Source of the DNA: a virus
Virus genome (UHGV): UHGV-0716684
Length of the DNA stretch: 44,840 nt
Reading direction: 5' to 3' (one strand)
Shown here in pieces: positions 3,550-41,465 of this stretch (within the stretch, counting starts at the first letter, position 1; each line of letters begins with the position of its first letter). The notes under the pieces are model-generated. The model searched no databases and was not told the origin of the DNA. It was given only the letters and a program-made list of their open reading frames with translations. The translations under genes and the position numbers were made by a program.

Positions 3550-5772
3550 CTATTCCAAATCCTCCTCTGTCACCACCAGCATCTCATTTGGTTCGTATAG
3601 TGTCTTCGGCCTTAATCTATCACCTATTCTTTCGGGTATACGATATGTTCTCGGTACTACTTCGCCGTTAGCATCGCAACCAAGCATTAGTTCTCCATCT
3701 TTCAACATTTTATCAAGATGGGTGTTAGTCACAGAGAAGTCACCGGAACGAGCCACTATCTGCTGCTGAGTAAAACCGCGACCTGTGTCATCTGACTGTT
3801 GCAGGTCTTCCAGTGCCGAAAGTATTGACTCCTTCCTTACTTCATCCCTGCCGCGTTTAACTTCTTCCTTTACTTTTTGCTTACCTTCTTTCGTCAACCC
3901 TTCTTCCCGCTCTTTCTCCTCGTCAGTTTTGAACGGCTCGAAACCCCACGGCATCAACACAAGCGCCTTGTGTGGTTCAGGCAGGTCCAGGTTTACGATT
4001 GTGCCGTATTCCTCTGTGCTACCCAGGAACTCAACCGCTCGGTATTCTTTAGGCGGCGGCGCTTCACGGAACTGTACCGACTCCAGCACCATGCCAACCG
4101 TCTTCTGCTGAGGCCCGTGCTTGAATTTCGAGTGATATACGTTTATCTGACGGTCGGTTGCACGTTCGATTGTCAGTTCCACGTCAACACCCGCATACAG
4201 CGCCCCACTGCCGCGTGCTTTCTTTCCACCCTTCGGCGTATGGTGGACAACGCCTACTGCGGCTTTAGTTGCATCGCGTACTTCTTTCAGAATGGCGATA
4301 ACTTTACCCATGCCGATTGCTGTTGATGAACTGTTCTCGTCGAACTTATCAATCGTCAGTGCCAGGGTCTGGTTAAGGGTGTCGAACGCAACCATGCCAA
4401 TTGGCTCGTCGCCAGCAGTTTCGCGCATTAACTTAATCAGGCTTTTAAGTTTGCCGACTTCGCCCATATCGATGACGTGTACATAATCTTTACCTTCCCC
4501 GCCATATTTAGCCGCTAGTGCATCAATACGGGTGCGTGTAGCTGCGCCACCCTCACCATCAATATAGAAATGGTGGCAACGCTGGGTATCCGCCCCCGCA
4601 AACCTGTACCCGGCGGCGCTGAGGTACATCATCCCCAGCGTATAGAACGATTTGTACGTGCCAGATTCCCCGACGATATCCCAGATACAATCCGACGGCA
4701 TGTACCCCTCAACGACGAAATCAGCCTTTACCGGCTCCGGTAACTCGTCCTCCTCTGAGTCCTCGTCGTCTTCCAGGTCGTCGAGGCTGCAAGTTACTGG
4801 GTCCTCGTTCTCTGTGCGGTGTAGTTCTTCAATCTCTTCTTCCGGTAAATCAGGCAGAGCCGCACGAATGCTGTTAATGCTGATAGGTTGCTTATCTATG
4901 TTAAGCTCGTCGGGTAGGCCACACATACGCAGGGCCAAATGCTGCCTACGGTTAAGCTCGGTGCAAGCGCCGTTGTTTGTATGCTGGCAGACAAAGCGCA
5001 CTTCTTTACCGTCGAGCATTATGCTGGTGGAGCCCTTGCCTGTATGCAGATGTTCGTTAGGGCATGGCACTTCGTACCCGCGCCCGGAAGATAAAGCGTC
5101 AAGGCCAAGCTCGGCTTCGCAGAAGTGTGCTATATCCGCGTTAAGCCCATGCTCATCAGCGGCAAGTGTTTTAGCCTCACGCTTACGCAACCCCATCTCT
5201 TCGGCTTTCTTGATGTACCGCTCAGCACGGATAACACGCCCTTCTGTAACCGTTATCTTCGACTCTTTATGCGGCAGGTAGATAAGGCGGTTGCCGTCTT
5301 CTGTGCAGTGGTCGCGCAACGCTTCGTCTATTTCTAACTCTGCACAAATAGCACGTTGCACCATCCACGCGTCGTTAGAGTTAAACGGCGTGCGAGCTGG
5401 AACCAGAACGCGGAAAGCGTAATCTCCGTTTTTACATGCGTGCTGATGCGATGCCGTTGTGTGCAGAATATTGAAGAACGGCGCGTTCTTGAATTTGCGT
5501 GTCAGGTCGCGGTACTGAGTACGGTTGAGATGGTCGAAATCGAACTTAACCACACTGTCTTCCAGGATAGCGTTTTTACGGCGACCACCAACAGGCGCAA
5601 TAGCTTTCTGTTTAATCTTGGCAGCGTCGTACTCTTCCTTAGTCCATGACGGGTCCACGGATAAACGCTTCGATGTATCGCAGACATACTCGACAAACTG
5701 CTCCAGCGGCATTTCACGCGCTACAGGGTTTTTATCGAATGTGTTACGCAGCGTTGCAAAAACAATATTCAT
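3550..5772 (-). CDS. putative primase-helicase (primase-polymerase-like N-terminal domain, Zn-binding motif, C-terminal RecA/AAA_25-type ATPase)
   Basis: 740 aa; DFDH and SHQH motifs, CPNEHLH..C..C zinc motif, Walker A GESGTYKS, RecA-like C-terminal region. Confidence 0.7.
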   Translation of the reverse strand: MNIVFATLRNTFDKNPVAREMPLEQFVEYVCDTSKRLSVDPSWTKEEYDAAKIKQKAIAPVGGRRKNAILEDSVVKFDFDHLNRTQYRDLTRKFKNAPFFNILHTTASHQHACKNGDYAFRVLVPARTPFNSNDAWMVQRAICAELEIDEALRDHCTEDGNRLIYLPHKESKITVTEGRVIRAERYIKKAEEMGLRKREAKTLAADEHGLNADIAHFCEAELGLDALSSGRGYEVPCPNEHLHTGKGSTSIMLDGKEVRFVCQHTNNGACTELNRRQHLALRMCGLPDELNIDKQPISINSIRAALPDLPEEEIEELHRTENEDPVTCSLDDLEDDEDSEEDELPEPVKADFVVEGYMPSDCIWDIVGESGTYKSFYTLGMMYLSAAGYRFAGADTQRCHHFYIDGEGGAATRTRIDALAAKYGGEGKDYVHVIDMGEVGKLKSLIKLMRETAGDEPIGMVAFDTLNQTLALTIDKFDENSSSTAIGMGKVIAILKEVRDATKAAVGVVHHTPKGGKKARGSGALYAGVDVELTIERATDRQINVYHSKFKHGPQQKTVGMVLESVQFREAPPPKEYRAVEFLGSTEEYGTIVNLDLPEPHKALVLMPWGFEPFKTDEEKEREEGLTKEGKQKVKEEVKRGRDEVRKESILSALEDLQQSDDTGRGFTQQQIVARSGDFSVTNTHLDKMLKDGELMLGCDANGEVVPRTYRIPERIGDRLRPKTLYEPNEMLVVTEEDLE

Positions 5773-6854: not shown

Positions 6855-6883
6855 TTGCACACCCCAACATAATAGGTTACTAT
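6855..6883 (+). promoter_or_regulatory. conserved phage promoter TTGCAC-N17-TACTAT with AATAG-N4-CTATT operator-like palindrome
   Basis: TTGCACaccccaacataataggtTACTATtcac; near-identical copies at 20383-20411 and 29690-29718 (minus strand). Confidence 0.5.
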
Positions 6884-8463: not shown

Positions 8464-8492
8464 TTGCACACTAAGATAGAATAGGCTACTAT
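8464..8492 (+). promoter_or_regulatory. promoter TTGCAC-N17-TACTAT with GAATAG-N4-CTATT operator-like palindrome
   Basis: TTGCACactaagatagaataggcTACTATtcat upstream of gene at 8525. Confidence 0.5.
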
Positions 8493-8710: not shown

Positions 8711-9170
8711 AATATGGTTCCGGAGCCGGTTTGGGTTCACCCCGGCCCGGAAAGACAATGGCTACGCTGAACCAGAGGTTCAGCGGATGTGGGTACGGTG
8801 GAGTATCGACCGTAGTATCGTGGGTCGCGGTATCTATACTGACGAGGAAAACGCTATAATCGACGCTTACATCGGCCTGGAGCACAACCCGTACAAGCAA
8901 CAGTGCGAAGACCTGGCGCATGGGGTGCTGTCACTTAAAAACCAGTTACGTGATGCGTCGGCGCAGATTAAGGATTTGCATCTGGCGCTGGTTAAGGCCA
9001 CCGGTGACGTTGAGGCGTACAAACTTATCCGGGAACAGGAGCAATCCGGTTGCCGTAAGGGAGATACTCAGGAATGTGAACATGATTGGAGGGTAGTGCA
9101 GTATTCCGCCGGGGTAGAGACGAATAAGTGCCGCCTTTGCGGAGAAGAAAAAGAGGTTCGCTACAAATGA
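8697..9170 (+). CDS. hypothetical protein with C-terminal Cys-rich zinc-finger-like motif
   Basis: Frame open from 8610; start uncertain (TTG at 8697 or ATG at 8787); C-terminal C..H..C..C. Confidence 0.45.
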   Translation: MQQFEIWFRSRFGFTPARKDNGYAEPEVQRMWVRWSIDRSIVGRGIYTDEENAIIDAYIGLEHNPYKQQCEDLAHGVLSLKNQLRDASAQIKDLHLALVKATGDVEAYKLIREQEQSGCRKGDTQECEHDWRVVQYSAGVETNKCRLCGEEKEVRYK

Positions 9171-9370
9171 CCAGCATCCTCTTTATCTGGGTGTTATCTG
9201 CGGGTCAGATGCACCTGGCGGCAACAGAAACGTTTTATTCTATGGAGGCGTGCCAGTCAGCGGCACGCGCCGCAGAGAACGCGCACTTCTTGTTTCAGGG
9301 CGACAAGCCTAACGATTCAGAGGTACGCGCTATCTGCTCACCTAAGCGACTTGGTAAACAGGAGAAGTGA
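9167..9370 (+). CDS. small predicted secreted protein
   Basis: 67 aa from ATGA-overlapped ATG; hydrophobic signal-peptide-like N-terminus MTSILFIWVLSAGQMHLAA. Confidence 0.45.
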   Translation: MTSILFIWVLSAGQMHLAATETFYSMEACQSAARAAENAHFLFQGDKPNDSEVRAICSPKRLGKQEK

Positions 9371-10234: not shown

Positions 10235-10543
10235 TTGGATAAATTTACTGAAACAGTGACGGGGTGGCTTCTCGCTGCCGCACTAGCCGGAGGGGTAATC
10301 GGCCTACGGCAACATAAGTCCGTTATTTCTGGCCCTATTGATGGCTTCTGCTTTATCGCTACCGGCTTCACCTGCGCCGTATTTGGTGCGCCTCTCGCGG
10401 CCCAATGGTTTGGTATTACCGGCGAACGCGAGATAGCTGGCCTGGGCTTCATTATCGCTATTCTCTGGATGCCTATCTATTCCCGCCTCTCCGGTATCGT
10501 CGCCGGAGAATACATCGCACGTCGAGGAGACCCGGATGAATGA
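10235..10543 (+). CDS. putative holin (three hydrophobic segments)
   Basis: 102 aa membrane protein immediately upstream of lysozyme; TTG start 6 nt after GGAGGA. Confidence 0.55.
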   Translation: MDKFTETVTGWLLAAALAGGVIGLRQHKSVISGPIDGFCFIATGFTCAVFGAPLAAQWFGITGEREIAGLGFIIAILWMPIYSRLSGIVAGEYIARRGDPDE

Positions 10544-10808
10544 GTTATTCTGGTTCGGCGGTATGCTGGCAATCGGTGGCACATCGCTGTTTAATGTATA
10601 CCACCCCAGTGTTGACGATGGGTTATTTGGTCGGGTGCTCTACATCCTGACCGCTATCGTTTGCGCTGCCGGATGCATCCACCTGTTACAGGGCAGCATG
10701 TCGCCAACGCTGCCTGGGACATTAATCACATTAGTTGCGCTGCGCCAGATTCGTCAGGCGTGGCTGTCATACGGAGGACATAAGCGTGTCTCGAAACATT
10801 TCAGATAA
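10536..10808 (+). CDS. putative holin/antiholin-like membrane protein (two hydrophobic segments)
   Basis: 90 aa; overlaps holin stop and lysozyme start. Confidence 0.5.
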   Translation: MNELFWFGGMLAIGGTSLFNVYHPSVDDGLFGRVLYILTAIVCAAGCIHLLQGSMSPTLPGTLITLVALRQIRQAWLSYGGHKRVSKHFR

Positions 10809-11271
10809 TGGGTTGCATTTTACCGCTGCATTTGAGGGATTCCGCGGAACTGCGTATCGCGCTACACCGAATGAGAAGTACCTTACAATAGGCTACGGAA
10901 GCTATGGCCCTCATGTTAAGGCTGGGCGGACCATCACTCCAGGGCAAGGCCTCCTGTTACTGAATCGTGATATGGCTAAGGCCGTAGCTGCGGTTGACGC
11001 AGCAGCGCACCATTCACTGACGCAGGCGCAGTTTGATGCTGTTTGCGACCTGGTCTATAACGCGGGCGCTGGCGTGATTGCTGCTACTACGGGCACGGGT
11101 AAGGCGCTGCGTTCTGGTGATATCACGACGCTGCGGGCTAAGCTGGCGCTGTTCATCAACCAGAATGGTAAACCGTTACTTGGTCTGCGTCGCCGTACTG
11201 CGGGTCGTCTGGCGTTGTTCGACGGTAAACAGTGGCAGGAGGCGGAGGCTATCGGGAGGGCTGTTAAATGA
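10786..11271 (+). CDS. endolysin, lysozyme (glycoside hydrolase family 24-like)
   Basis: GTG start 8 nt after GGAGG; motifs AAFEGFRGTAY and TIGYG typical of phage lysozymes. Confidence 0.8.
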   Translation: MSRNISDNGLHFTAAFEGFRGTAYRATPNEKYLTIGYGSYGPHVKAGRTITPGQGLLLLNRDMAKAVAAVDAAAHHSLTQAQFDAVCDLVYNAGAGVIAATTGTGKALRSGDITTLRAKLALFINQNGKPLLGLRRRTAGRLALFDGKQWQEAEAIGRAVK

Positions 11272-16799: not shown

Positions 16800-18212
16800 T
16801 CACTTATTCCATACCAATTTCTCTTGTCCGCTATCCCATATGCGGGATACACCTTCCGCAGCGTACCATTCCGACTGTGTAAGCCCCTCTGGCGCTTTGT
16901 TCCATTTTTGCCGTGATTCTGTTTTAGTCGCATTGTTTACGACGATGCGGAATCCACATCTCACAGAAGCCTTTTTAAACCCCGCTGATAGGTATGATTC
17001 TCCGGTAAATAAATCCCGGTCAGTGTAGGTAAAACCGTCGGTGATGCTATAACGGCGCACGGCATAGGCCCATAGCTTCGACAGCCCGCCTACCACCGAA
17101 CACGACGTAGCGTACCGCACAAGCTCCCATTCACCTTTTCTACACGTCAGCGTCATTACCGCAACAATCTTTTCTTCATAAACGAGGCTGATATACCTCG
17201 TCGAGTTACGGAATCCTTGAATGTGGTTCTCCTCCAGGAAACGCTCTGCACATATTTTGTTAATCTCTTTTACATGGCATTTGCGGGCGAAAACTCGCAA
17301 AGAAGAGACGCCGACGGAATGGCCGATTATTTTCTTTATTATTTCTTTTTTATGCAGCCATAGCTCATCCCTTATTGACAGGAGCCGGAACCCTCTTTCC
17401 TCAACGGCGACTCTTTTCTCCATGTGATACTTTCTCCCCTTCCCGGCAGCTTCACTGTGCCAGTACAGGCCGTTTATTTCTATCGCCAGATTATGTTGCG
17501 GTATTAAAATATCTATCTCTCTTGGGTGGATAAGACTTCTATCATTCCGATGATATTCCACCCCCATGCTATCGAGAAATTCACAGACTTCATCCTCCAC
17601 TTTACTACGCCCGAACGACGCGCACCGCGGGCACCCTCTACCCTGAAAAATGTTACCAAGCGTAGAGGCCCATTCATGGCCTTTTTGACACCTCAGTGTC
17701 GATGGCGCACGGCAGATATCCCCTGAATAAGACACCAGTTCAAAACCAGTGCCGCGTAACCTTTCCTCTATTTCTCCGATCTCGAGCCTTTTTCTGTTAG
17801 TGCTGCAATTCGGGCAATGACTTTTACCCCTTAAAATGTCGCTGCCGGTAGCGGACCAGACGAACCCGCATTTACATCTGAACGTTGATTTCCCACTTAC
17901 AGCACCTGCGTAATTAAGGCATTCAACCCCATTAGGCCACTCTGTTACTTTCGCCCGTTTTTCCGCAGCGTAGCATTGGGGGCAACCATGACCGTTTAGG
18001 ACGGTATTGGCCTTTGTCTCCCACACATGGCCACTACGGCAGCGGAATTTAGACTTAAGTTTAGAGTGGCCTGCATACTCAATTACTACTATACCCCGTG
18101 ACGCCAGTCTCAGGTTTACATCTTCTTCAGTTAAACGTCTGGACCCCATTAAAATACCCTCCGCTTCTTCTAGTATAAAGATTGTGTATATACATGTACC
18201 ACAGCAAGACAT
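16800..18212 (-). CDS. putative multi-domain homing-type endonuclease (zinc-ribbon repeats plus PD-(D/E)XK Vsr/DUF559-like nuclease motif)
   Basis: Repeated C..GH.W...G.GCP.C units; motif EIDILIPQHNLAIEINGLYWHSE; opposite strand inside the packaging/head module. Confidence 0.55.
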   Translation of the reverse strand: MSCCGTCIYTIFILEEAEGILMGSRRLTEEDVNLRLASRGIVVIEYAGHSKLKSKFRCRSGHVWETKANTVLNGHGCPQCYAAEKRAKVTEWPNGVECLNYAGAVSGKSTFRCKCGFVWSATGSDILRGKSHCPNCSTNRKRLEIGEIEERLRGTGFELVSYSGDICRAPSTLRCQKGHEWASTLGNIFQGRGCPRCASFGRSKVEDEVCEFLDSMGVEYHRNDRSLIHPREIDILIPQHNLAIEINGLYWHSEAAGKGRKYHMEKRVAVEERGFRLLSIRDELWLHKKEIIKKIIGHSVGVSSLRVFARKCHVKEINKICAERFLEENHIQGFRNSTRYISLVYEEKIVAVMTLTCRKGEWELVRYATSCSVVGGLSKLWAYAVRRYSITDGFTYTDRDLFTGESYLSAGFKKASVRCGFRIVVNNATKTESRQKWNKAPEGLTQSEWYAAEGVSRIWDSGQEKLVWNK

Positions 18213-20382: not shown

Positions 20383-20411
20383 ATAGTACCCTATTATATT
20401 GGTGTGTGCAA
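20383..20411 (-). promoter_or_regulatory. promoter TTGCAC-N17-TACTAT with GAATAG-N4-CTATT palindrome
   Basis: Reverse complement TTGCACacaccaatataatagggTACTATtc; upstream of the HNH gene. Confidence 0.5.
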
Positions 20412-25568: not shown

Positions 25569-25981
25569 TGGGCTACTTTGAGGACTTAACAAAAGCGTTT
25601 GATGTGCCGCTGGTAGCCTTCGGAACCGCCAACGGCATCAAAGTCGCGCTTGAAAATATCGGCGCACCGACGTCAACCGATACACCATATCTGGCAAGTT
25701 ACATGTTGCTGGCGGATACGGAACAGGCGGATTTGTTCTTCACGGAACAACGCGCTGGCGTCTATCAGGTAGATATTAACTACGCATCGGTGAAAGGTAG
25801 CGCGCCAATCAATAAAATGGCAGACTTACTTAACACGGCGTTTAAAGCAGGTAAGTCATTTTCACGTAACGACATCTGCGCCGAGGTTCAATCGGTTAGC
25901 CTGGGGCCGCTGATTGTAGAAAACGGATGGGCCAAACGACCATTGTCAATTAACTTTATTGCATTCACCAAGAGGCTGTGA
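25565..25981 (+). CDS. putative tail terminator / tail component
   Basis: 138 aa ORF immediately upstream of major tail protein gene. Confidence 0.45.
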   Translation: MMGYFEDLTKAFDVPLVAFGTANGIKVALENIGAPTSTDTPYLASYMLLADTEQADLFFTEQRAGVYQVDINYASVKGSAPINKMADLLNTAFKAGKSFSRNDICAEVQSVSLGPLIVENGWAKRPLSINFIAFTKRL

Positions 25982-27150
25982 ATATGGCTACAACTCCTTT
26001 TAAGGGCGCGAATACTGCGCAATTCTATGTGGCAGAAACTACCCCGGGCGTAACACCGGCTAACCCGGTATGGTCGCCGTTGCGCAACACGGGCGGCGTT
26101 CCTGCCATTACCCGCGACACGCTGACCTCCAACGAACTTGACGGCAGCCGAGAAACCACATCCATCCGCACCGGTAACAAGCAGGTTAGCGGAGAATACG
26201 CTATTGAGCTTAGCTCTAAAAGTCAGGACGACTGGTTAGCCGGGGCTTTAGGCTCTACGTGGCAATCCGGCGTTTCCCTGTCAGGACTATCGATTACCGT
26301 CGCACCCGCGGGCAAGACGTTCACACGCGCTACCGGCAGTTTTATCACTGACGGAGTTGGGGTAGGCGACCTGATTGCGTTTACCGATTTAACAGGCGAT
26401 AACGCAAAACCATTTATTGTTACTGCAGTAACGGCTACGGTTGTTACTGGTGCGGGCATCCAACACACCCTGACCACCGAGACAAAAACTAGTAAGGCTA
26501 AAACTGGCGACACGTTGGAAACCGGTAACGCGTGTAAGACGTTCTCTATCCTTACCTGGTACAAAGGCCAGTGCGGCGGTACTGACGCGTACACGTTAAC
26601 CAAAGGCGTGGAAGTTTCTGGTTTTACCATCGAACAGGCTGTTAACGCGATGGTAACTGGCAGCTTCCCGTTCATCGGTCGCAGTCAGGAGATTCTCACC
26701 ACGCAGCCGTCTGGTTCTGATTTCTCCTCTGTTACGTTTGGTGACGAGCCATTCTCCTCGGTCGATGTTTCTGTGTTCGACGGTTCTACGCCGTTGCGTT
26801 GCGACAGCCTGACCATCGCCAACGACAACAGCGCGTCGGCGCAGTTCGAACTCGGCAACACTAACGTAGCGTTTGTGGAACGTAGCCGCGCGGCTAACAC
26901 CTTCTCCATCTCCGGCAAGCTGTACGACATGGCTATGATTCAGAAGTTTATCAACGAACAGCAGGTGGAGATTAACTCTATTCTGGCGGGGGTAAACGGG
27001 GCTATGTCTTTTAGTTTGAAACGCGCAGAACTCACGGCGGTTACACCTGAGATTGGTGGGCCTGAGTCAATTACCCAAAGTATAGAAGGGCAGTCCACAG
27101 GCAACCAGTATCAGTCGTCTATCGTAATTCAACGTATTAGTTACGCATAA
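25978..27150 (+). CDS. putative major tail protein
   Basis: 390 aa; last gene of the plus-strand head-tail operon, followed by conserved terminator. Confidence 0.6.
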   Translation: MNMATTPFKGANTAQFYVAETTPGVTPANPVWSPLRNTGGVPAITRDTLTSNELDGSRETTSIRTGNKQVSGEYAIELSSKSQDDWLAGALGSTWQSGVSLSGLSITVAPAGKTFTRATGSFITDGVGVGDLIAFTDLTGDNAKPFIVTAVTATVVTGAGIQHTLTTETKTSKAKTGDTLETGNACKTFSILTWYKGQCGGTDAYTLTKGVEVSGFTIEQAVNAMVTGSFPFIGRSQEILTTQPSGSDFSSVTFGDEPFSSVDVSVFDGSTPLRCDSLTIANDNSASAQFELGNTNVAFVERSRAANTFSISGKLYDMAMIQKFINEQQVEINSILAGVNGAMSFSLKRAELTAVTPEIGGPESITQSIEGQSTGNQYQSSIVIQRISYA

Positions 27151-27154
27151 AACT

Positions 27155-27179
27155 AAGGCCCCGAAAGGGGCCTTTTCTT
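27155..27179. terminator. conserved bidirectional terminator hairpin aaggccccgaaaggggcctt
   Basis: T-rich tract on both strands; convergent gene ends. Confidence 0.65.
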
Positions 27180-27396
27180 ACTCACTTTTGAACGGCATTT
27201 CGTAGAAGTTAGTTAACTGGCCTCGGTCCCTTCGTTCTGTCATTTCTTTAGAGGCCTCTTCCTTACTACTAACGGCATAAATATCAACCCACTCGTCCCA
27301 TTCTTCGTCGTATACTCGGATTACATATATTGTTTTCATAATATTTTCACTCATCAATATTGCTTCGGTATTCCCGTAACTTCTCCAGACTTTCAA
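27178..27396 (-). CDS. hypothetical protein (accessory island)
   Basis: 72 aa ORF on opposite strand within tail module. Confidence 0.45.
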   Translation of the reverse strand: MKVWRSYGNTEAILMSENIMKTIYVIRVYDEEWDEWVDIYAVSSKEEASKEMTERRDRGQLTNFYEMPFKSE

Positions 27397-27577
27397 TTGC
27401 TTCTGCTAAGTCGGTTCCGGTGTCCTTGTGTCCGCGCAAGCCCATGCACAATAACTTCTTTAACGCATGCTGTAGCGCCGGGTCACGGATATCGAAAGCA
27501 CGGAGCACATCATAAACGTCTACTGTCATGGTGCTGCCGTGAGTGTTTGTCATTGTGCGGTTGTATTTTGAAGTCAT
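27347..27577 (-). CDS. hypothetical protein (accessory island)
   Basis: 76 aa ORF. Confidence 0.45.
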   Translation of the reverse strand: MTSKYNRTMTNTHGSTMTVDVYDVLRAFDIRDPALQHALKKLLCMGLRGHKDTGTDLAEAIESLEKLREYRSNIDE

Positions 27578-27586
27578 CTCTACACC

Positions 27587-28087
27587 CTATTTATAACCGT
27601 TGTTGAATGTTGTCAGTCCATGATTTATGTGAAACCTATTAGCCACAGACATGTAAATTCTTTCAGCGAAAGCGTCCTCTATTCTGTCAAATGTTTTACT
27701 AATCTGCTTACCGTTGACAACGGCATAAGCTCTCCACTTAGTTTTTCCTTTCCGCGCCACACCCGTAACTCCAGAGGTATTATCTTTGCGCCTTTTCACG
27801 TTAACCATGTTGTCCCTTCTAGATTTGCATGACAGGTTTTCAATTCTGTCGTCACAGGTATCATGGTTAGTATGGTCTATGACAAATCCTTTTGGAATCT
27901 TACCTGAGAACATCTCATACACCACCCTCGACCTTTTAAACTTACGGTTACCAAACATGACATACCAATAGCCGTTTTTACACAAACTCCCGGCCACATC
28001 ACCTATATTCACATCGTTACGGCGACATGATTTGACTTTCCAGTATAGGACGCCATTTTTGTAGCTAAAAACCTCACTCCAATCCAT
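27587..28087 (-). CDS. HNH homing endonuclease with AP2 DNA-binding domain
   Basis: HNH_3 motif VIDHTNHDTCDDRIENLSCKSRRDN; AP2-like SGVTGVARKGKTKWRAYAVVNGKQISKTFDRIEDA. Confidence 0.75.
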   Translation of the reverse strand: MDWSEVFSYKNGVLYWKVKSCRRNDVNIGDVAGSLCKNGYWYVMFGNRKFKRSRVVYEMFSGKIPKGFVIDHTNHDTCDDRIENLSCKSRRDNMVNVKRRKDNTSGVTGVARKGKTKWRAYAVVNGKQISKTFDRIEDAFAERIYMSVANRFHINHGLTTFNNGYK

Positions 28088-28102
28088 ACTTTCACCTATA
28101 TT

Positions 28103-29257
28103 TTAGTATGTCGATTTTGGGTTTATGTCTCGCAGCATTTCGACAGGTATACTTATGCGGGACACCTCCCCGTAACGTTTGTGGTATGTAATCACATTTG
28201 CGCTTCTACCTGAATAATAGCCGCCCTTACTAGAATACTCATCTTTAGCCGCTAATGTCTGGTGTTGCTCAACAATTAGCAGATTAGTCTCTTTAACCGC
28301 CCTGTGATGGAGGTGCCCCGTATGGACATATGTGAACTTACACCGCCCGTACATCTCCCGGTACTTACCGATTATAGCCTGCTCTACCTTAGCAAAGTTA
28401 GAACAATGCCCGTGATGTGCTGAAATCATACAATCCCCGAACTTGTACGCATAATACGGTGACACCTCCCGGTTAACCTCGACGCGAGGCTCATTTGTGT
28501 ATACCTCGTAGAACATCTCCCGGAGCCACAGAGAAGAACTAAGGTCGTGGTTACCTTCACAGATAAGAAGTTTAACCTTCTTGTGTTTTCGCAAGCACAG
28601 TGAGACAGCCAGCTTGATAACCTTAATGGCCGTGCGTATCATTTTAAACAGGCGACTATCCGCTGAAAGAATATGACCGCTCATAGGGGTCATTGCCTTC
28701 ATGCCGTCGTAGTGCATTTGGTCCCCTAAGAAGTTAATGATACATTCACCACTCTGTGGACTCATACAAACCGCACTGTTGAACCAGTCAACCGCGAGAG
28801 ATTCCGCGATTGTGGTGTCGTAATCATCCCCGCCTTCTTCTTGACACGCCAACATCCCTATGTGATGGTCTGTTATTGTGTAAAGATTTAATAAGTCGTC
28901 ATCTGTCCCATTTTTGGCCAAAGTGACTGGCTTATACTTGGGTAAATCTTTTTTCATCTCGTCCACAACGGCTTTCATTAACTCGACCTGACGTTCCGCA
29001 TCGGTGTCGGTCTTAACCCATTGCAGTTTAGTGTTGCCTAACTCATCAACCAGAGACGATGTACCCTTAATCTTGTAGCCGTCCGGCACAAGGTGGCTAA
29101 CGTCACGCCCGTGGCCTACGCCTTTCTTCGCTAGTTTCGCTTTACGGATACGAATAACGCGGTCTGAGATGCCGTATTTACGAGCAATGTCGATATTCTT
29201 CATCCCAGCGTTCAATTCTTCCTGTAACTGTTCGTCGGTTATTTTCTTCTGGGCCAT
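28103..29257 (-). CDS. HTH-fused calcineurin-like metallophosphoesterase
   Basis: N-terminal HTH (IDIARKYGISDRVI); phosphoesterase motifs TDHH, GDQMHYDG, GNHD, HTGHLHH. Confidence 0.65.
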   Translation of the reverse strand: MAQKKITDEQLQEELNAGMKNIDIARKYGISDRVIRIRKAKLAKKGVGHGRDVSHLVPDGYKIKGTSSLVDELGNTKLQWVKTDTDAERQVELMKAVVDEMKKDLPKYKPVTLAKNGTDDDLLNLYTITDHHIGMLACQEEGGDDYDTTIAESLAVDWFNSAVCMSPQSGECIINFLGDQMHYDGMKAMTPMSGHILSADSRLFKMIRTAIKVIKLAVSLCLRKHKKVKLLICEGNHDLSSSLWLREMFYEVYTNEPRVEVNREVSPYYAYKFGDCMISAHHGHCSNFAKVEQAIIGKYREMYGRCKFTYVHTGHLHHRAVKETNLLIVEQHQTLAAKDEYSSKGGYYSGRSANVITYHKRYGEVSRISIPVEMLRDINPKSTY

Positions 29258-29322
29258 GCCTATTTCCTCGTGTTTAGGATTTGTCCTATTTAACCACAGT
29301 GCATTCCTTTAAATAAAGGCAA

Positions 29323-29649
29323 CTATTTACTTTCTGCGCCTATTGACCATCCGGTTGTAACCATTTGCAAACGAGTGGCTAACAGTAGGCTGCTGAAAGT
29401 GGGGCTGTTAACATCTACAGACTCAACAACAAGGGATGTCATCAATTCAAGACCAAGGCCAGACCCGCCAGCGCGCACGGCAGCATTACATTCGCGAATA
29501 GCAGCGGTTTTAAACGCACTAACGGCAGACGGAGGGGCTGAATCAAGCACCCCGGAAGTTACTAAAGGGGTTTCACTATATACTTGCTCACACTGGGACC
29601 CTACCGCGCAAAAAGAAATAAGACCCATGGCTATGATTAATTTACGCAT
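29323..29649 (-). CDS. small secreted/periplasmic protein
   Basis: 108 aa; N-terminal signal peptide MRKLIIAMGLISFCAVG; first gene downstream of promoter at 29690-29718. Confidence 0.5.
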   Translation of the reverse strand: MRKLIIAMGLISFCAVGSQCEQVYSETPLVTSGVLDSAPPSAVSAFKTAAIRECNAAVRAGGSGLGLELMTSLVVESVDVNSPTFSSLLLATRLQMVTTGWSIGAESK

Positions 29650-29689
29650 TTTAATTCCTTATTTAAGTTAATAACGTTGGTGTAAGTGA

Positions 29690-29718
29690 ATAGTACCCTA
29701 TTATATTGGGGTGTGCAA
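29690..29718 (-). promoter_or_regulatory. promoter TTGCAC-N17-TACTAT with GAATAG-N4-CTATT palindrome
   Basis: Reverse complement TTGCACaccccaatataatagggTACTATtcac; essentially identical to 6855-6883. Confidence 0.5.
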
Positions 29719-29826
29719 GTAGTGTGTTAGAATAATTTTGCACCTAGTGTCGCGCACGAAAAGCGGTTGGTTACCGCCTGGTGCATTTCTCTTTAACCAA
29801 CAACCTCTTAACCAAAGGATTAAAGA

Positions 29827-30243
29827 ATGAAACTTTCTGATTTTTATTTCGCGTCCCGCCACGCTGCGGGAACTAAGATGCCTATCCTGCTACCGGACGG
29901 CAGTGACTCAGGGGAGTGGTTGCAGGTGATGGGGCCTGACTGCGACGACTCAATCGCCGCAGCTAAGGATTTTATCTCCGCTTACCGCGACATCCTTGAC
30001 CGCCTGAAACCGCTCGACGCGGAGTGCCGCGAGAAAGGGGACTGGGCGCGCTATAACACGGAATTAAACAGTGAATTGGCTAAACTTAACGATGCACTTG
30101 CTGCCGTTGTTGTTGTAGGGTGGTCCTTCGAGGAGAAGTTCACTAAGAAAGCGTTGGTCAAGCTGTTGAAGGAGTATAAAGGGTTGGGAGGGGCTGTCGC
30201 TCAACACCATGCTGAGAGCCGCAAAGCTTTATCTGTAAAGTAG
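29827..30243 (+). CDS. putative tail assembly chaperone
   Basis: 138 aa ORF directly upstream of tape measure gene; AAGGA RBS. Confidence 0.5.
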   Translation: MKLSDFYFASRHAAGTKMPILLPDGSDSGEWLQVMGPDCDDSIAAAKDFISAYRDILDRLKPLDAECREKGDWARYNTELNSELAKLNDALAAVVVVGWSFEEKFTKKALVKLLKEYKGLGGAVAQHHAESRKALSVK

Positions 30244-30602
30244 AAGCGCTTTACGAATATGCGAGGTATCGCTGGGTTATACGGCAAAGGAGACGTGAGT
30301 TCGACTCCATCGCCGACGGGCACAAGGCCGCTATGGCGGCTATGGGGTTACCTGTACCGAAGGAGCCTGAGGAAACCCCGCCGGAATGCCCGAGCGATAT
30401 GATGAAAATAATGGATAAATACTACGCATTGAAGTTTGTAAGCCGCAATAATGTGCTAATACCAAGGGAAATGCTCCAATATCACCACCTTACAGCGTAC
30501 GCAGAGTTGCATAAACAGCCGTTCTCGTTGCTTGAGGTAGACTTAATAATGGGCCTAGACGCACTGTTCGAAGGCCGTAATGAGGACGATTATAATGGCT
30601 GA
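30216..30602 (+). CDS. possible frameshift extension of tail assembly chaperone (GT-like), or separate small ORF from ATG 30333
   Basis: Frame is open from 30216, overlapping the last 28 nt of the chaperone ORF in the -1 frame, and ends just inside the tape measure gene. Confidence 0.35.
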   Translation, partial: EPQSFICKVEALYEYARYRWVIRQRRREFDSIADGHKAAMAAMGLPVPKEPEETPPECPSDMMKIMDKYYALKFVSRNNVLIPREMLQYHHLTAYAELHKQPFSLLEVDLIMGLDALFEGRNEDDYNG

Positions 30603-32598
30603 TACCGCGAGTTTAATGGTGCGAGTCCAGGCAACTGGAGCGGAGCAAGCAGCAAAGCAGTTAGATAACCTTAGTAGTTCCGCTGGGAAAGCGGATTCCA
30701 GCACAAAGAAACTAACGGACACCACCTCCGCGGCAACCCCGAAGATGAACGCGATGCGGGCGTCAATAGGTAATGCTGGGTATCAGGTACAGGACTTTAT
30801 CGTACAAATCCAAGGGGGGCAGTCCGCCCTCACGGCTTTCACGCAACAAGGTAGTCAGTTAGTGTCCGCATTCAATCCAATTGCGGGCACGGTATTGACT
30901 ATCGCCACCGTAATCGGCGGCGCGCTGTACGCGTCTTTGAGTAACTCAACGGATACCGCTAAACAACTGGAGGAAGCTACTAAGTTCCTTGATGACGCTC
31001 TTAATGAGGCCACACCCGGTGTGTATGACATGAATGACGCACTGGAAAAACTGGACGCTGTCGGGGCAACAACAGCGGAGAAGATGGCATTTCTTAATAA
31101 GGCACTAGAGGCAACCGCCATACAGGCTAACTCCACCGCAGATAAGATTGTTGAAGCTATTGATAAGGTAACAAAAGCCCAATCTCTGTTTCAGAAGTTG
31201 ACCACCAACCTTGCCGCATCACAGATAGCCCAAGGCGGGGACGCTGCCGGGGCCGTGGCTTTCCAGTACGAATCCGCTGCGGAAGCTGCGGGGTTGACCG
31301 CCAAAGAGTTACGCAGTATTGAAGTTGCTCAGAAAGCAATCGCAGCTGGGGTTCCTGGAGCTCGAGAAGGGCTGGTCGCCTACCTGGACGGCATAAACGC
31401 CAAAACGCCAGAAGCGCAGATGGAAATAAATAAACTGCGAAATGAACTTAACTACCTTGGTGTGGAGGAAAAGACCCGCGCAGCCGAGCGAAAAGGGGTA
31501 GAGCAATCTGAGAAGACGTATGAAAAGGATAAGGCGGACAGGGCACAGAAGGAAATAGACAGGCAGAATCGTATCGCTGCCGCAGCTAAGAAACGAGCAG
31601 ATGCTCAAGCCCGCGCCGACGCTCGCGCGCAGGAAAGCGCACAGAAAGCCGCAGACCAGTTTATAGCTCAAATAGACACAAACACCGGAACAGAGTTAGA
31701 ACGGATAGACGCCAAAGAGAAACAGAAACTGGCTAAATTGCAGGAGTTCCACGACAAGCAACTCGTAAGCGACGCTGACTACGAGAAGTCGAAAAGTGAC
31801 ATCATGGCGGAGTTTCAGGCACAACGAGATGCGCTGTATAACAATGCTGATGCATATCTGGAGAAACTACAGGCGCTTGGTGGCACAGAGTTCGAGGAAA
31901 TCCAACGGCAGAATGACGCCAAACTTAAGCAACTGGACGATTTCCTTAAACAGAAACTAATCAGCGAAGAAGAATACGCTAATGCAGTGCGTAACCTGAA
32001 CGAACAGAGCAATATTGCACAAGCCAACGCCACCGCCGACGCATTCGGCAGCATGGCAGCGGATGCTAAATCCGCACTGGGGGAGACGTCCGCTGCGTAC
32101 AAAGCGTTCGCCATAACGCAAGCGACTATTGCCACTTACACGGCTGCTATCGAAGCCTATAAATCAACTGCTGCTATTCCAATTGTCGGCCCGGCACTCG
32201 CTCCGGTTGCCGCGGGTCTGGCTGTCGCGGCGGGGGTGGCGAACATCGCCAAGATTAGCGGCGCGCGTGAGCAAGGCGGGCAAATGAACGCTGGCGGTAG
32301 TTACCTGGTTGGTGAACGCGGCCCTGAGATTATCAAGATGGCGGGTTCTGGCAGGGCGACCAATGCAAGTCAAACACGGCAGCAGTTAAACGGTAATAAT
32401 AGCGGAAATAGTGGCCCATCTAATGTTACTATCGTAAACAACACGAGTTCTCAAATCGGCAACGTATCCACTGAGCAAGATGATGAGGGCCGTTTGCGTA
32501 TCATCATTGAAGAACAGGTTGCCGCGTCTTTGCAGAACAGCAACAGTAAGATTAGCAAGGCTCGCAAGGCCACAAGAAACGCGCCGGGGTTCAAATAA
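30595..32598 (+). CDS. tail tape measure protein
   Basis: About 670 aa, long coiled-coil-like A/E/K/Q-rich sequence with Gly/Ala-rich hydrophobic segment near C-terminus; canonical position. Confidence 0.8.
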   Translation: MADTASLMVRVQATGAEQAAKQLDNLSSSAGKADSSTKKLTDTTSAATPKMNAMRASIGNAGYQVQDFIVQIQGGQSALTAFTQQGSQLVSAFNPIAGTVLTIATVIGGALYASLSNSTDTAKQLEEATKFLDDALNEATPGVYDMNDALEKLDAVGATTAEKMAFLNKALEATAIQANSTADKIVEAIDKVTKAQSLFQKLTTNLAASQIAQGGDAAGAVAFQYESAAEAAGLTAKELRSIEVAQKAIAAGVPGAREGLVAYLDGINAKTPEAQMEINKLRNELNYLGVEEKTRAAERKGVEQSEKTYEKDKADRAQKEIDRQNRIAAAAKKRADAQARADARAQESAQKAADQFIAQIDTNTGTELERIDAKEKQKLAKLQEFHDKQLVSDADYEKSKSDIMAEFQAQRDALYNNADAYLEKLQALGGTEFEEIQRQNDAKLKQLDDFLKQKLISEEEYANAVRNLNEQSNIAQANATADAFGSMAADAKSALGETSAAYKAFAITQATIATYTAAIEAYKSTAAIPIVGPALAPVAAGLAVAAGVANIAKISGAREQGGQMNAGGSYLVGERGPEIIKMAGSGRATNASQTRQQLNGNNSGNSGPSNVTIVNNTSSQIGNVSTEQDDEGRLRIIIEEQVAASLQNSNSKISKARKATRNAPGFK

Positions 32599-37437: not shown

Positions 37438-39390
37438 ATGTCAAGCGGATGCGGTGACGTTTTAAGCCTGGTGGATTTACAGACCGCCAAGAAACACCAA
37501 ATTTTTGAAGCCGAGGTTATCACCGGCAAATCCGGCGGTGTTGCTACTGGTGCTGATATTGATTATGCAACAAATCAGGTTACCGGACAGACACAGAAGA
37601 CGTTACCCGCCGTGTTGCGTGGCGCGGGATTTTCTCCCGTGTCGTGGGACTTTTCTACAGGCGGGACATTAACAGTTAATGACCGAGACAAAGTGGTGTA
37701 TGACCCTGTAAGCAAGACGTGGTACTCGTATACCGGGACTCTGCCGGTTGTTGTCCCCGCATCGTTTAACCCGGTTGGTAACGCTAACTGGAAGCCGCAG
37801 ACTGACCCGGATTTGCGCAATGAGCTAGCAGATCTATCCGGCGCATCTTTGGTGGGATTCAATTCTGGGTATTCCGATTCGGTTTCACTCACCGTAATGG
37901 ATAAACTCAAACAGGAGATTAACGTTGATGATTTTGGCGCATACGGTGACGCCTACCTGGTAAACGGAAGCCCAAACCCTAGTCGCCATGACGACACATC
38001 GGCGTTTCAGGCGGCTATAGTCGCCGCGTGGCGCGCGGGTGGTGTTAAAGTTGTTGCTACTCCGTGGAAAAGCTACTACATCGCCGGTAAAGTTTATGTG
38101 TTGGCTTCAGAATCTCCATCTGACATTGAAGCAACTAATTTCCCTAAGCGTAGGATGCAAGTGATCGATTTTCAGGGCGCTCGTATCGTAGGGCGTGACG
38201 ACACTTCTGACACAACTAACGTGTTCATTGAGACTGGCTATATAACTTCTACTGGCACTATCTCTTCGGTTTTTGGAAAATCTGGTGAAGAGTATCTAAC
38301 TATAGGGACAACAATTCGCAATGCTACACTGATTAATTTCTATCAAGGCTTTCGTCTGCGGGACCATGTATTTGGCTGCGAAGTTACAGATATTGTTGGT
38401 GTAAACGTCCAGCAGTTGATTTACACTCAGCGCTGTTTTTACTCCATGTTCAGGAACCTACAGTGTAACGGTACATACACTAACGGCTTGCACCGTTACC
38501 ACTTTACCGATGAATGTAACATTCAGCCATTAGTATCAGTTCATACAGGCCAGTGTGATGTCGGCATTAAGTTCGAAGGGGCTGTTGAAGCTCTTACGCT
38601 GTTCAACTGCGGCATTGAAAGTTTTCGTACCCATGGCGTTTGGATTGCAGGAGCATATAACATCAAGTTTGATTCATGCTACATAGAGTCAGACGAAAGT
38701 GGTGTATATGGCGTCATAGCAACGAGCGCCAATAATATCACTATGGATAACTGTTGGATTTACGGCAGTAGTATGAAAATGTTTGGCGCATTTGACGATA
38801 ATACTAACGTGCGTATTCTTCCTAATAACCGTATTGGGGGAGGGGCCGTTTGGTGGAACCTTAACGAAGGGTCGCCGTACAACCTTTCTGACATTCACTG
38901 GCAAACAGATATAAAACCCGGCGGTACAACACTACCCGCTGCATCCGCTAAAGAGGCCAGCACAGTAGACCAGACTATAGTCTTCTACCACCCGGATTTA
39001 GGACTTAGTTCAGTTGTAGGGAAAGCCAAGCAGACCAGTAAATACCACCCGCAGCTTGTTAACGGGAAGATGAGCAATGGTAGCTCCGCAGGGTACACAG
39101 TTGGCGCGAGCGTCTCTACAGAGATTTCTGGCTCAGACACCCGAGCAAAATGGACAACACAGATTCAATACTCAGATACCCAATTACTGTTCCTCGCCCT
39201 TAAAATAGACCATAACTTGGGGACATGGTTTTGGCTCGGGCATGTAGCCGGTGGGACCGCGGTGGCGCTTTCTACATCCGATGTATCGAAGCCGCCGGTG
39301 GTGAGCAACGAAAATGGCTTCGTTGTGGTAAAAAGTCCTTATTTGGCTACTCCTGTCGCCATACACGGCGGGGAAATACGCATACTCTAA
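37438..39390 (+). CDS. tailspike / tail fibre, candidate receptor-binding depolymerase with beta-helix-like body
   Basis: 650 aa; N-terminal anchor-like domain, then repeated Asn/Cys-containing rungs (NCGIESF, DSCYIESD, MDNCWIYG); last structural gene. Confidence 0.65.
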   Translation: MSSGCGDVLSLVDLQTAKKHQIFEAEVITGKSGGVATGADIDYATNQVTGQTQKTLPAVLRGAGFSPVSWDFSTGGTLTVNDRDKVVYDPVSKTWYSYTGTLPVVVPASFNPVGNANWKPQTDPDLRNELADLSGASLVGFNSGYSDSVSLTVMDKLKQEINVDDFGAYGDAYLVNGSPNPSRHDDTSAFQAAIVAAWRAGGVKVVATPWKSYYIAGKVYVLASESPSDIEATNFPKRRMQVIDFQGARIVGRDDTSDTTNVFIETGYITSTGTISSVFGKSGEEYLTIGTTIRNATLINFYQGFRLRDHVFGCEVTDIVGVNVQQLIYTQRCFYSMFRNLQCNGTYTNGLHRYHFTDECNIQPLVSVHTGQCDVGIKFEGAVEALTLFNCGIESFRTHGVWIAGAYNIKFDSCYIESDESGVYGVIATSANNITMDNCWIYGSSMKMFGAFDDNTNVRILPNNRIGGGAVWWNLNEGSPYNLSDIHWQTDIKPGGTTLPAASAKEASTVDQTIVFYHPDLGLSSVVGKAKQTSKYHPQLVNGKMSNGSSAGYTVGASVSTEISGSDTRAKWTTQIQYSDTQLLFLALKIDHNLGTWFWLGHVAGGTAVALSTSDVSKPPVVSNENGFVVVKSPYLATPVAIHGGEIRIL

Positions 39391-39557: not shown

Positions 39558-40978
39558 TTCTTACCTCGTCTCTTCATGTAATTAAGCAATTCTTCCTGCA
39601 CCGATTTCTTCTCGTCTGTACGCGCGGCAACAACCTCGTCCAGCGTGTCTTTAGCAACGATGTGATAGAGGAACACCGGCCGCTCGCGCCCTGCCTGTTT
39701 CTGGCGGACCGGGCCTATACGCTCGACAACCTGCAAATAGTGCTCAAGGTTCCAGCCTTGCGAGATGAATGCCAGATGATGCCCGCCGTCCTGTAAATTC
39801 AAACCATGCCCGGCTGACGCAGGATGCACGCATAAGATTTCGATTTCCCCTCGGTTCCATGCTTCCATCTGCTTATTGCCCTTAGCGCCTTTGGCAAACG
39901 CCTGGGCCTGCGGGAATCGCTTAAGGATGCGCTCCAGTTCGTGCTTAAACTGATAGGCCACCAATAACGGAGCGCCCTGTAACTCCTCAACAATCGACTC
40001 AAGCGCATCCAGTTTCGTGTCGTGAACTTTCTCCCAGTCTTTGGTTGCTTCTCCGTCTGGCCCCGATACATACACGGCACCGGATGCAATCTGTAGGCAC
40101 TTCGACGTCTTCGCCGCAGCGTTAGCCGCTTCCACTTCCCCGCTCTCCAGTTCTGCGAATAGCTTCTCCTCCATATCGATGTACGCCTGACGCGCCTTCT
40201 TCGGTAGGTCGATTTCAACCGGTACAATAATCGGCGCTTCACAACCAAACCACTCGGCCGCGTCAATCGTGAGACTAATGTCTTTCATCTTCTGATGAAT
40301 CTCATTATCTGCGCCAGGGCGGGCGTGGTATTCACGTGCCATCGCCGATTTGCCCTTCTGTACCGAGTTAAACCAGCGGTCTGTGAATGCTGTGTATGAA
40401 GAACCGAGGCGCTCTCCAGCGTCGATAAACCAGTTCTGACCCCACAAGTCCTTAAGGCCGTTCGGTGACGGTGTACCGGTAAGGTTAATGAAACGCTTAA
40501 CCTTACCGAACGCCACTTTGCTTAACGCCTTTGCTCTCTTACTACCGCCAGAACGACTACGGAATGATTTCAACTTCGTGCTTTCATCGGCGACGATAAC
40601 CGTAAAAGGCCAGTCGTCTTTGCCGTAGTAGTCGATAAGCCACTCGATAACTTCGTAGTTGGTGCACACCACGTTAGCGTCTGACTCCAGCGCCGCGATG
40701 CGGCGCTTCTCTGAACCGGTCGCATCGACGACACGCAGACAAGGGAAGTTCCATTTCTCTTGTTCTGCAGGCCATGTACCTGACGCAACACGCAACGGCG
40801 CGAGGATTAACACGCGGTCATCATCATTAAGTTGGCCGTTGCGGAACAGTCTGTTTAACGCCCACAGTACGCTGCCAGTCTTACCCGCACCCATGCTCGC
40901 CCATATGTTACAGCGATGGTGCCGCAGCATGAACGAGGTCATAAGCTTCTGGTACTCGCGCCTTTGAAACTTACTCAT
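39554..40978 (-). CDS. superfamily II DNA helicase (SNF2/RAD54-like)
   Basis: 474 aa; Walker A GAGKTG, DEST box (VADESTKLK), motif III LTGTP. Confidence 0.8.
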   Translation of the reverse strand: MSKFQRREYQKLMTSFMLRHHRCNIWASMGAGKTGSVLWALNRLFRNGQLNDDDRVLILAPLRVASGTWPAEQEKWNFPCLRVVDATGSEKRRIAALESDANVVCTNYEVIEWLIDYYGKDDWPFTVIVADESTKLKSFRSRSGGSKRAKALSKVAFGKVKRFINLTGTPSPNGLKDLWGQNWFIDAGERLGSSYTAFTDRWFNSVQKGKSAMAREYHARPGADNEIHQKMKDISLTIDAAEWFGCEAPIIVPVEIDLPKKARQAYIDMEEKLFAELESGEVEAANAAAKTSKCLQIASGAVYVSGPDGEATKDWEKVHDTKLDALESIVEELQGAPLLVAYQFKHELERILKRFPQAQAFAKGAKGNKQMEAWNRGEIEILCVHPASAGHGLNLQDGGHHLAFISQGWNLEHYLQVVERIGPVRQKQAGRERPVFLYHIVAKDTLDEVVAARTDEKKSVQEELLNYMKRRGKK

Positions 40979-41465
40979 TGGGTCGTATTCCTTTGTCTAA
41001 TGTTTCAAGTGCCGATACCCTGGCGGCTATTGCTTCTTCTCTTGTAGAGTAATAGCCTAAATGCTTCTTTATTCCGTCAATAGTCATATACGCGGCCCAT
41101 TTATTATGCGACTCTCGCCACCTAACGCCAGGAAAGCCGCTTTTATTACTCGACCTAATTTTCTGCCATCCAGCTTTTGCGACGTTACCTTGTTGTGTCA
41201 CTAACTGTAGATTTTCCAATCGGTTATCATCGTACACGCCATTTATGTGGTCAATTTGCATTCCTTCTGGAATCTTGCCGTTGTGCATCTCCCAGACTAT
41301 TCTATGCGCTTGGTATATTTTACCTTTGAACTTAATACGCCTATGACCCTTGTTTACCGAGCTTCCTGCTGTACTGCCTACCGATACTCTCGGCCCCGGT
41401 CTTACTCGCCAAATGAGGGTGCCGTTGTCGTAGGTGAATATCCTTCCCCATGCTATTTCACACAT
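40971..41465 (-). CDS. HNH homing endonuclease with AP2 DNA-binding domain (paralog of 27587-28087)
   Basis: HNH_3 motif QIDHINGVYDDNRLENLQLVTQQGN; AP2-like SGFPGVRWRESHNKWAAYMTIDGIKKHLGYY. Confidence 0.75.
   Translation of the reverse strand: MCEIAWGRIFTYDNGTLIWRVRPGPRVSVGSTAGSSVNKGHRRIKFKGKIYQAHRIVWEMHNGKIPEGMQIDHINGVYDDNRLENLQLVTQQGNVAKAGWQKIRSSNKSGFPGVRWRESHNKWAAYMTIDGIKKHLGYYSTREEAIAARVSALETLDKGIRPNE

Follow-up and report, generated by a model that had tools for sequence, protein, structure and literature searches.

Locus and Gene Content

The window, meaning the whole stretch of 44,840 nucleotides analysed here (UHGV virus genome UHGV-0716684), resembles the genomes of Guernseyvirinae (Jerseyvirus and Kagunavirus), which are siphophages of Salmonella and Escherichia; a megablast search with positions 27000-31000 matched 387 phage records. 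The gene under study is an open reading frame (ORF) encoding 108 amino acids on the minus strand, with its ATG at 29649 and its stop codon at 29323-29325. It stands at the head of a group of minus-strand genes that interrupts the tail genes. The features of this region are as follows.

25978-27150, plus strand: tail tube gene, on the low-coordinate side of the island
27155-27174, both strands: GC-rich hairpin AAGGCCCCGAAAGGGGCCTT with T-runs on both strands, found by a terminator scan
27178-29649, minus strand: island headed by the 108-aa gene, bounded by the tail tube gene on one side and by the chaperone and tape measure genes on the other
28103-29257, minus strand: DNA repair exonuclease gene (phrog_704; PHROG E = 1e-150), the next gene downstream in the island
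29290-29661, minus strand: exchangeable cassette, the exact interval in which homology to phage XY1 is missing before it returns on both sides
29323-29649, minus strand: the 108-aa ORF (108 codons and a stop), a member of phrog_14165
29656-29660, minus strand: Shine–Dalgarno sequence AAGGA, 6 nt upstream of the ATG, visible in the sequence itself
29690-29718, minus strand: promoter-like motif TTGCACACCCCAATATAATAGGGTACTAT of 29 nt, with a -35 element TTGCAC (29713-29718), a 17-nt spacer and a -10 element TACTAT (29690-29695)
29827-30243, plus strand: tail assembly chaperone gene (Phage_TAC_4; Pfam and PHROG matches), a divergent and constant neighbour of the family
30580-32598, plus strand: tape measure gene

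The original prediction had placed a 108-aa product at 29323-29649, inside the tail module and as the first gene downstream of a conserved TTGCAC promoter. All of these statements hold: the ORF is real and lies on the minus strand, the island occupies the space between the tube gene and the chaperone and tape measure genes, and the TTGCAC-N17-TACTAT motif lies 41 nt upstream of the ATG on the same strand.

An ORF of 98 aa overlaps the gene on the other strand (29375-29671, plus), which leaves the formal alternative that the 108-aa frame arose by chance or that the real gene is the plus-strand one. The sense frame is open in all nine homologous loci tested. The antisense ORF is open only in the window and in two loci (L047 and L048), which together are the three closest alleles; it is broken in all other alleles and is therefore probably not coding. 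Values of dN/dS lie far below 1, both within clades of the gene family (0.02-0.22) and for the mature part of the protein against its closest relatives (0.13-0.24), and close comparisons gave no sign of positive selection in dN/dS. A ribosome-binding site and a promoter motif are present, and 44 family sequences share a conserved length. The non-gene reading is refuted by this evidence and its probability is negligible; the comparisons indicate a real and conserved gene that evolves under purifying selection.

The 108-aa gene is probably co-transcribed with the DNA repair exonuclease gene, and the terminator scan detected no terminator-like site in the 65-nt gap that precedes the latter. At the far end of the island, the hairpin at 27155-27174 is likely to serve as a bidirectional terminator for the convergent tail tube gene and the reverse island.

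The remainder of the island may bear marks of gene replacement. The 76-aa ORF at 27347-27577 (minus) matches phrog_2452 in its C-terminal third alone (positions 150-220 of 235). Phages XY1 and K1H carry a full-length gene of 184-189 aa and a kinase-phosphatase gene at that place, and the window has an HNH_3 endonuclease gene (27587-28087, minus) instead, so that the 76-aa ORF looks like a remnant of an HNH-associated replacement. In total, the window contains three dispersed genes for HNH or homing endonucleases (16800-18212, 27587-28087 and 40971-41465, all minus), two of which belong to reverse-strand islands of the structural module. At the corresponding sites of related phages, the gene is absent or replaced, for example by an amidase gene in Ent3.

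The phrog_14165 Family and Its Predicted Fold

The protein matches the phrog_14165 profile, annotated as of unknown function, over its full length (E = 1.8e-33, residues 1-108 on positions 1-109 of 109). Full-length homologues with 47-60% identity were found by tblastn in 99 phage records; family members are present in Bas70 and Bas73, two isolates of the BASEL collection. A large protein collection contributed 25 clusters at 90% identity, to which 7 representatives at 50% identity are added. An exhaustive HMM search of 1.84 billion representatives and a third profile search extended the family to members as remote as about 20% identity. The set used for family analysis comprised 44 distinct sequences of 108-123 aa. 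One match of the exhaustive search, P0030 (744 aa), is a repetitive adhesin-like protein and was dropped as spurious.

The family is held together by few residues. Two cysteines, spaced 34-37 residues apart, occur in all 44 members, and only five columns are invariant, namely C20, C54, G64, W101 and G104. This pattern of two cysteines, two glycines and a tryptophan is that of a disulfide-stabilised exported domain, and C20 and C54 probably form a disulfide bond in the periplasm, as judged from their conservation. The protein can be divided into two parts.

29599-29649, minus strand: predicted signal peptide, residues 1-17 MRKLIIAMGLISFCAVG, based on hydropathy and the -3/-1 rule
29326-29598, minus strand: predicted mature domain of about 90 aa, all-helical, with C20 at 29590-29592 and C54 at 29488-29490

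The AlphaFold2 model is all-helical, with a pLDDT of 79.6 for the full length and of 90.5 (pTM 0.81) for residues 19-108. The mature domain can thus be predicted confidently to form a helical bundle.

Searches for a relative of known function were negative. Neither the protein nor diverse family members matched Pfam, NCBIfam or PADLOC, the last of which returned 0 families for 5 diverse members at E values up to 1. A PDB sequence search with the family profile gave T5 Llp (8a60_B) as its sole match, at E = 1.9 and over the signal peptide only. Foldseek comparison of the mature-domain model with the PDB found nothing below an E value of 4.9, and comparison with BFVD returned only the family itself and weak matches to small uncharacterised phage proteins. 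In the literature on superinfection in Guernseyvirinae, Jerseyvirus and Kagunavirus, nothing was found on phrog_14165, and the Imm-type gene described below appears at the level of annotation only. On the evidence of these profile searches and of the model, phrog_14165 is an uncharacterised orphan family with an apparently orphan helical fold.

Predicted Export Signal and Lipobox-Bearing Relatives

The N-terminus has the organisation of a Sec signal peptide. The n-region is MRK, the h-region reaches a 10-residue Kyte–Doolittle (KD) mean of 2.64, and the -3/-1 site heuristically assigned is A15-V-G17|S18; signal peptidase I is predicted to cleave after G17 or after S18. A second hydrophobic segment is absent, the maximum 19-residue KD mean after residue 30 being 1.13. 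The signal peptide proposed originally is in this way upheld by heuristics (hydropathy and the -3/-1 rule) and it is kept throughout the family: all 44 sequences have a positive N-terminus followed by a hydrophobic stretch (10-residue KD mean 2.1-2.9) and no later membrane-like segment, and distant members show canonical AXA cleavage sites. Export to the periplasm, as predicted from these properties, is the best-supported step of the mechanism discussed below.

Neither the window protein nor its 35 closest relatives contain a lipobox of the PROSITE type, [LVI][ASTVI][GAS]C. In 9 of the 44 members, all of them distant (P0029, P0035-P0040, P0045 and P0046; for example L042 2617-2982 and L050 4001-4372), a lipobox ..[LI]-G-C17-S-Y-V-G is conserved ahead of the two conserved cysteines and carries Ser at position +2. 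These nine members suggest that the phrog_14165 domain works on the periplasmic side of a membrane, and the domain appears to occur in both soluble and lipid-anchored forms.

Elsewhere in the window, the ORF at 9128-9370 (plus) gives, from an internal Met onwards (MTSILFIWVLSAGQMHLAATE...), a product that resembles another small exported protein containing two cysteines. It sits just upstream of the lysis genes at 10235-11271.

A Recurrent Promoter-Like Motif

The TTGCAC motif is present in four copies in the window, at 6855-6883 (plus), 8464-8492 (plus), 20383-20411 (minus) and 29690-29718 (minus). Three of them (6855 plus, 20411 minus and 29718 minus) are found when at most 3 mismatches are allowed, against 0.00 expected, each of them having 2 or fewer, and the copy at 8464 (plus) is a looser fourth one. 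The other copies precede a block of small genes and an endonuclease VII-like gene; the small genes are presumably early genes. Moreover, in more than 20 related loci, the motif lies upstream of whichever cassette occupies the place of the 108-aa gene.

A generic sigma-70 scan made no call at the TTGCAC-N17-TACTAT motif, as TTGCAC fits only three of the six positions of TTGACA. Because of this missing call, we infer both the strength of the promoter and its timing, and the motif is regarded as a putative strong promoter. The 17-nt spacer is nearly unchanged between motif copies and between phages, and it contains a perfect TATAAT and a CCC...GGG dyad, which is unusual for a plain sigma-70 promoter. 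A regulator may also bind at this 29-nt motif.

A Cassette Site Beside the Tail Genes

The clearest view of how this locus varies comes from the comparison with phage XY1 (L001). In a blastn alignment, the two genomes are 98.7% identical up to position 29289 and 89.3% identical from 29662, and the XY1 exonuclease is 99.7% identical to that of the window. Between these clean breakpoints (29290 and 29661), XY1 carries a different gene, whose 63-aa product matches the Pfam family PF14373 (Imm_superinfect) at 51.8 bits against a cut-off of 27.9. Such an exchange indicates that the slot is a cassette site beside the tail genes.

The position is maintained across the family. In every sister-phage locus, the gene is the first or second after a divergent promoter, between the divergent chaperone gene and the DNA repair exonuclease gene. 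For other family members, all ten contexts fetched have the gene first or second after a divergent promoter, between the tube and chaperone genes. In two loci (L045 and L052), the phrog_14165 gene is alone in its island.

Among 40 loci, the slot holds a phrog_14165 gene, an Imm-type gene or, in L006, L038 and L019, a gene for a different small protein carrying a signal peptide or a membrane segment. The slot proteins of L006 (2558-2947, minus) and L038 (2515-2838, minus) have a signal peptide, two cysteines and a length of about 107-111 aa, and that of L019 (2527-3036, minus) has an N-terminal membrane anchor. L006 is the contig IMGVR_UViG_2595698350_000001, with a chaperone identity of 60.1%. 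Alignment by hhalign of the family with the L006 protein was weak (probability 8%), with both cysteines in register, and with the L038 protein the probability was 5%. Additionally, L046 encodes an extra 65-aa protein with two membrane segments (4794-4991, plus) ahead of its phrog_14165 member.

No co-occurrence of phrog_14165 and Imm-type cassettes was seen among the 40 loci, and each of three complete genomes checked has one cassette type without the other. In the phage collection, the chaperone homologue was present in 492 records, phrog_14165 in 99 and the Imm-type gene in about 350, the last figure being derived from 353 hits in total, of which a few are in unrelated phages. About 90% of sequenced Guernseyvirinae have one of two alternative slot cassettes. 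The Imm-type protein is presumably a functional alternative to the phrog_14165 protein.

Linkage to the Chaperone and Tape Measure Genes

The type of cassette in the slot agrees almost perfectly with the clade of the neighbouring chaperone. One clade of 15 loci has 14 Imm-type cassettes and one unknown, and the other clades carry phrog_14165 in 12 of 12, 4 of 4 and 4 of 5 loci. The identity of phrog_14165 copies correlates with that of the chaperone (Spearman 0.74) and the tape measure protein (0.68), the values for the exonuclease and the tube protein being 0.53 and 0.50.

Strict co-variation with the tape measure protein was also considered and is ruled out by two loci. In Esher4, the chaperone is 97% and the tape measure protein 90% identical to those of the window, and the phrog_14165 copy is only 57% identical. 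In L043, the chaperone is 97% identical to that of L002, with a phrog_14165 copy of only 38% identity.

Exchange appears to take place within the gene as well. In Esher4 (L049 3995-4321), the only interval in which the DNA no longer aligns with the window is 29299-29556, the part encoding the mature domain; the DNA of the signal peptide, promoter, chaperone and tape measure is 79% identical and the start of the exonuclease gene 90%. The L047 gene (6001-6327) has a signal peptide of the Kagunavirus type joined to a mature domain of the window type. Both cases point to recombination inside the phrog_14165 gene.

Proposed Role and Alternative Explanations

The properties described above can be combined into a role in superinfection exclusion. 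The phage is a virulent siphophage of the Guernseyvirinae type. Judged from the sequence, the 108-aa gene is transcribed from the sigma-70-like promoter as the first gene of an operon with the DNA repair exonuclease gene. Its product is predicted to be exported by a Sec signal peptide, cut at a signal peptidase I site and not lipidated, and the mature helical bundle of about 90 aa, its cysteines probably disulfide-bonded, to reside in the periplasm. In the infected cell, the protein would block a post-adsorption step when another phage, identical or related in type, infects; the candidate steps are passage through the periplasm mediated by the tail tip or tape measure protein, or the transfer of DNA to the inner membrane. 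The T4-Imm-type protein found in the slot of sister phages would do this from the inner membrane. The claim that a small periplasmic protein blocks related superinfecting phages after adsorption is put forward with a confidence that falls a little short of an even chance.

Several observations argue for such a role. The gene alternates with genes of the Imm family and of other small envelope proteins behind the same promoter, its promoter and operon context are of an early type, and its linkage to the chaperone and tape measure genes is persistent. A precedent is provided by phage T4, in which Imm acts at the inner membrane and Spackle in the periplasm (PMC7677548). The argument is built on location, export and position, and the PF14373 proteins of this group are themselves predicted immunity proteins. 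No similarity to known exclusion proteins was detected in sequence or fold by Pfam, PADLOC, NCBIfam, PDB, Foldseek or hhalign searches. Also on the opposing side are the lack of any sign of positive selection in close comparisons and the loose matching to the tape measure protein seen in Esher4 and L043. As regards timing, a Kagunavirus transcriptome contains a late-peaking gene annotated as 'superinfection immunity protein', which is perhaps, not certainly, the slot gene (PMC12645636).

The original prediction had named the gene a candidate superinfection-exclusion factor, with Cor and Llp as its models. The general role is supported by the alternation with Imm_superinfect genes in the slot; the analogy with Cor and Llp is not supported. 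These two are lipoproteins of the outer membrane; they plug a receptor that is itself a protein, and their genes adjoin the one for receptor binding. If the 108-aa protein acted likewise, it would have to reach the outer membrane, mask the receptor and block adsorption or receptor triggering. Its small size, export and location in the tail region would suit this reading, the lipobox of the nine distant members, with Ser at +2, would target those proteins to the outer membrane, and some terminal receptor might still be recognised by the J-like 851-aa tail protein. No lipobox is present, however, in the window protein or its 35 closest relatives, and homology to Cor or Llp is absent in Pfam searches, the Llp match being confined to the signal peptide. 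The gene adjoins the chaperone and tape measure genes and lies about 8 kb from the tailspike gene (37438-39390). Furthermore, phage K1H, whose host is O18:K1:H7, is presumably dependent on the K1 capsule, and its copy differs from that of the O16-dependent Bas70 at only 2 of 108 residues despite the different glycan receptors. Guernseyvirinae depend on glycans (O-antigen or K1 capsule, K1-capsule dependence being stated for K1G), and no terminal protein receptor is known for them (PMC11990801). Taken together, the missing lipobox and homology, the glycan receptors and the near-identical K1H and Bas70 copies render receptor masking very unlikely, and a periplasmic block after adsorption is the more likely of the two.

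The main rival to exclusion is a periplasmic effector that serves the phage's own cycle, with resistance to secondary phages absent or incidental; it might inhibit a host periplasmic enzyme (a protease, nuclease or peptidoglycan hydrolase) or stabilise the envelope until lysis. Any periplasmic function would fit export and purifying selection, the lack of homology to any known exclusion protein agrees with this reading, and co-transcription with a DNA-metabolism gene says only that the gene is not a late structural one. Nevertheless, it leaves unexplained both the alternation of the slot with Imm_superinfect and small envelope protein genes and why the family has stayed beside the chaperone and tape measure genes through deep divergence, and it is considered unlikely. 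Another reading, in which the protein would be a periplasmic regulator of lysis, such as an antiholin like T4 RI or a spanin modulator, is highly improbable. T4 RI, of about 100 aa, is likewise small and helical with an N-terminal export signal, and Spackle mutants are annotated as also affecting lysis; against this, the complete lysis set of holins, endolysin and spanins is encoded elsewhere (10235-11271 in the window; Bas70 annotation) and never linked to the gene, and the holins are small with no evident periplasmic domain to bind.

Beyond the exclusion of related phages by a periplasmic protein, a broader and more speculative proposal, possible rather than probable, is that phrog_14165 constitutes a new class of periplasmic exclusion proteins with an orphan helical fold and with soluble and lipoprotein forms, and that it was the ancestral occupant of the slot. 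Recombination would then have exchanged alleles of the family as well as unrelated cassettes such as those of the Imm type, and the competitors excluded would differ between sister phages. The conserved promoter with the signal-peptide flank on one side and the exonuclease flank on the other would have served as exchange sites, and the slot would be a dedicated 'exclusion cassette' beside the tape-measure chaperone gene of Guernseyvirinae-like siphophages.

Implications for Phage Applications

Guernseyvirinae, including Jerseyvirus and Kagunavirus, rank with the most frequently isolated phages and with those most often suggested for biocontrol and therapy against Salmonella and E. coli, usually as components of cocktails. 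If entry of related phages into an infected cell does depend on the slot cassettes, antagonism between the members of a cocktail could be predicted from their cassette types. In that case, a new family and fold would be added to the few periplasmic exclusion proteins known, such as Spackle and Sim. A mechanism would also become available for a siphophage with a glycan receptor, for which the passage of DNA through the envelope is poorly understood. This would amount to a new family within a known kind of system, with the slot as a marker of interference among these phages. On the features of its sequence and locus, the phrog_14165 protein is a good candidate for a new kind of blocker of secondary infection.

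Comparison with Known Exclusion Systems

A close parallel in general design is T4 Spackle (also Sp or gp61.3; structures PDB 6X6O and 6XC0). Spackle is a periplasmic helical bundle of 75 aa with one disulfide that excludes superinfecting phages (PMC7677548). Both are small early phage proteins with a cleaved signal peptide and a compact mature helical bundle of 75-90 aa, features that are predictions for the protein described here. Both also have two cysteines, which form a proven disulfide in Spackle and are invariant in phrog_14165, and T4 pairs Spackle with Imm; in sister phages, Imm-type proteins fill the slot. Similarity in sequence or fold was not found by hhalign (probability 5%) or Foldseek. 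In addition, Pfam and PHROG searches revealed no muralytic domain in the tape measure protein, the 466-aa, 171-aa, 121-aa and 851-aa proteins or the tailspike protein. A Spackle-like lysozyme target is therefore unsupported, though a cryptic domain is possible.

T4 Imm offers a parallel through the PF14373 proteins, which about 350 related phages encode at this very position, downstream of the same promoter motif. These Imm-type proteins, of about 63 aa, look like inner-membrane proteins with two segments, whereas the window protein is predicted to be a soluble exported domain with a single hydrophobic segment and has no PF14373 match; the two are not homologous. Cor (of T1, phi80 and N15) and Llp (of T5) share with it the small size, export and a gene position within or close to the tail genes, are believed to guard against re-infection, and find a counterpart in the lipoprotein subgroup of phrog_14165 (9 of 44). 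They differ in that the window protein has neither lipobox nor homology to them, that no FhuA-type receptor is known for this phage group, and that the gene adjoins chaperone and tape measure genes rather than a receptor-binding gene.

A last group comprises P1 Sim, HK97 gp15 and TP-J34 Ltp, which block DNA entry after adsorption, from the periplasm or the membrane. They have no homology to the window protein detectable in Pfam, PADLOC, NCBIfam or the PDB; gp15 resides in the inner membrane, and Ltp, a lipoprotein, acts in a Gram-positive host. With both gp15 and Ltp, the sensitivity of an incoming phage has been mapped to its tape measure protein, and sensitivity of this kind would give a rationale for the linkage between the cassette and the tape measure gene.
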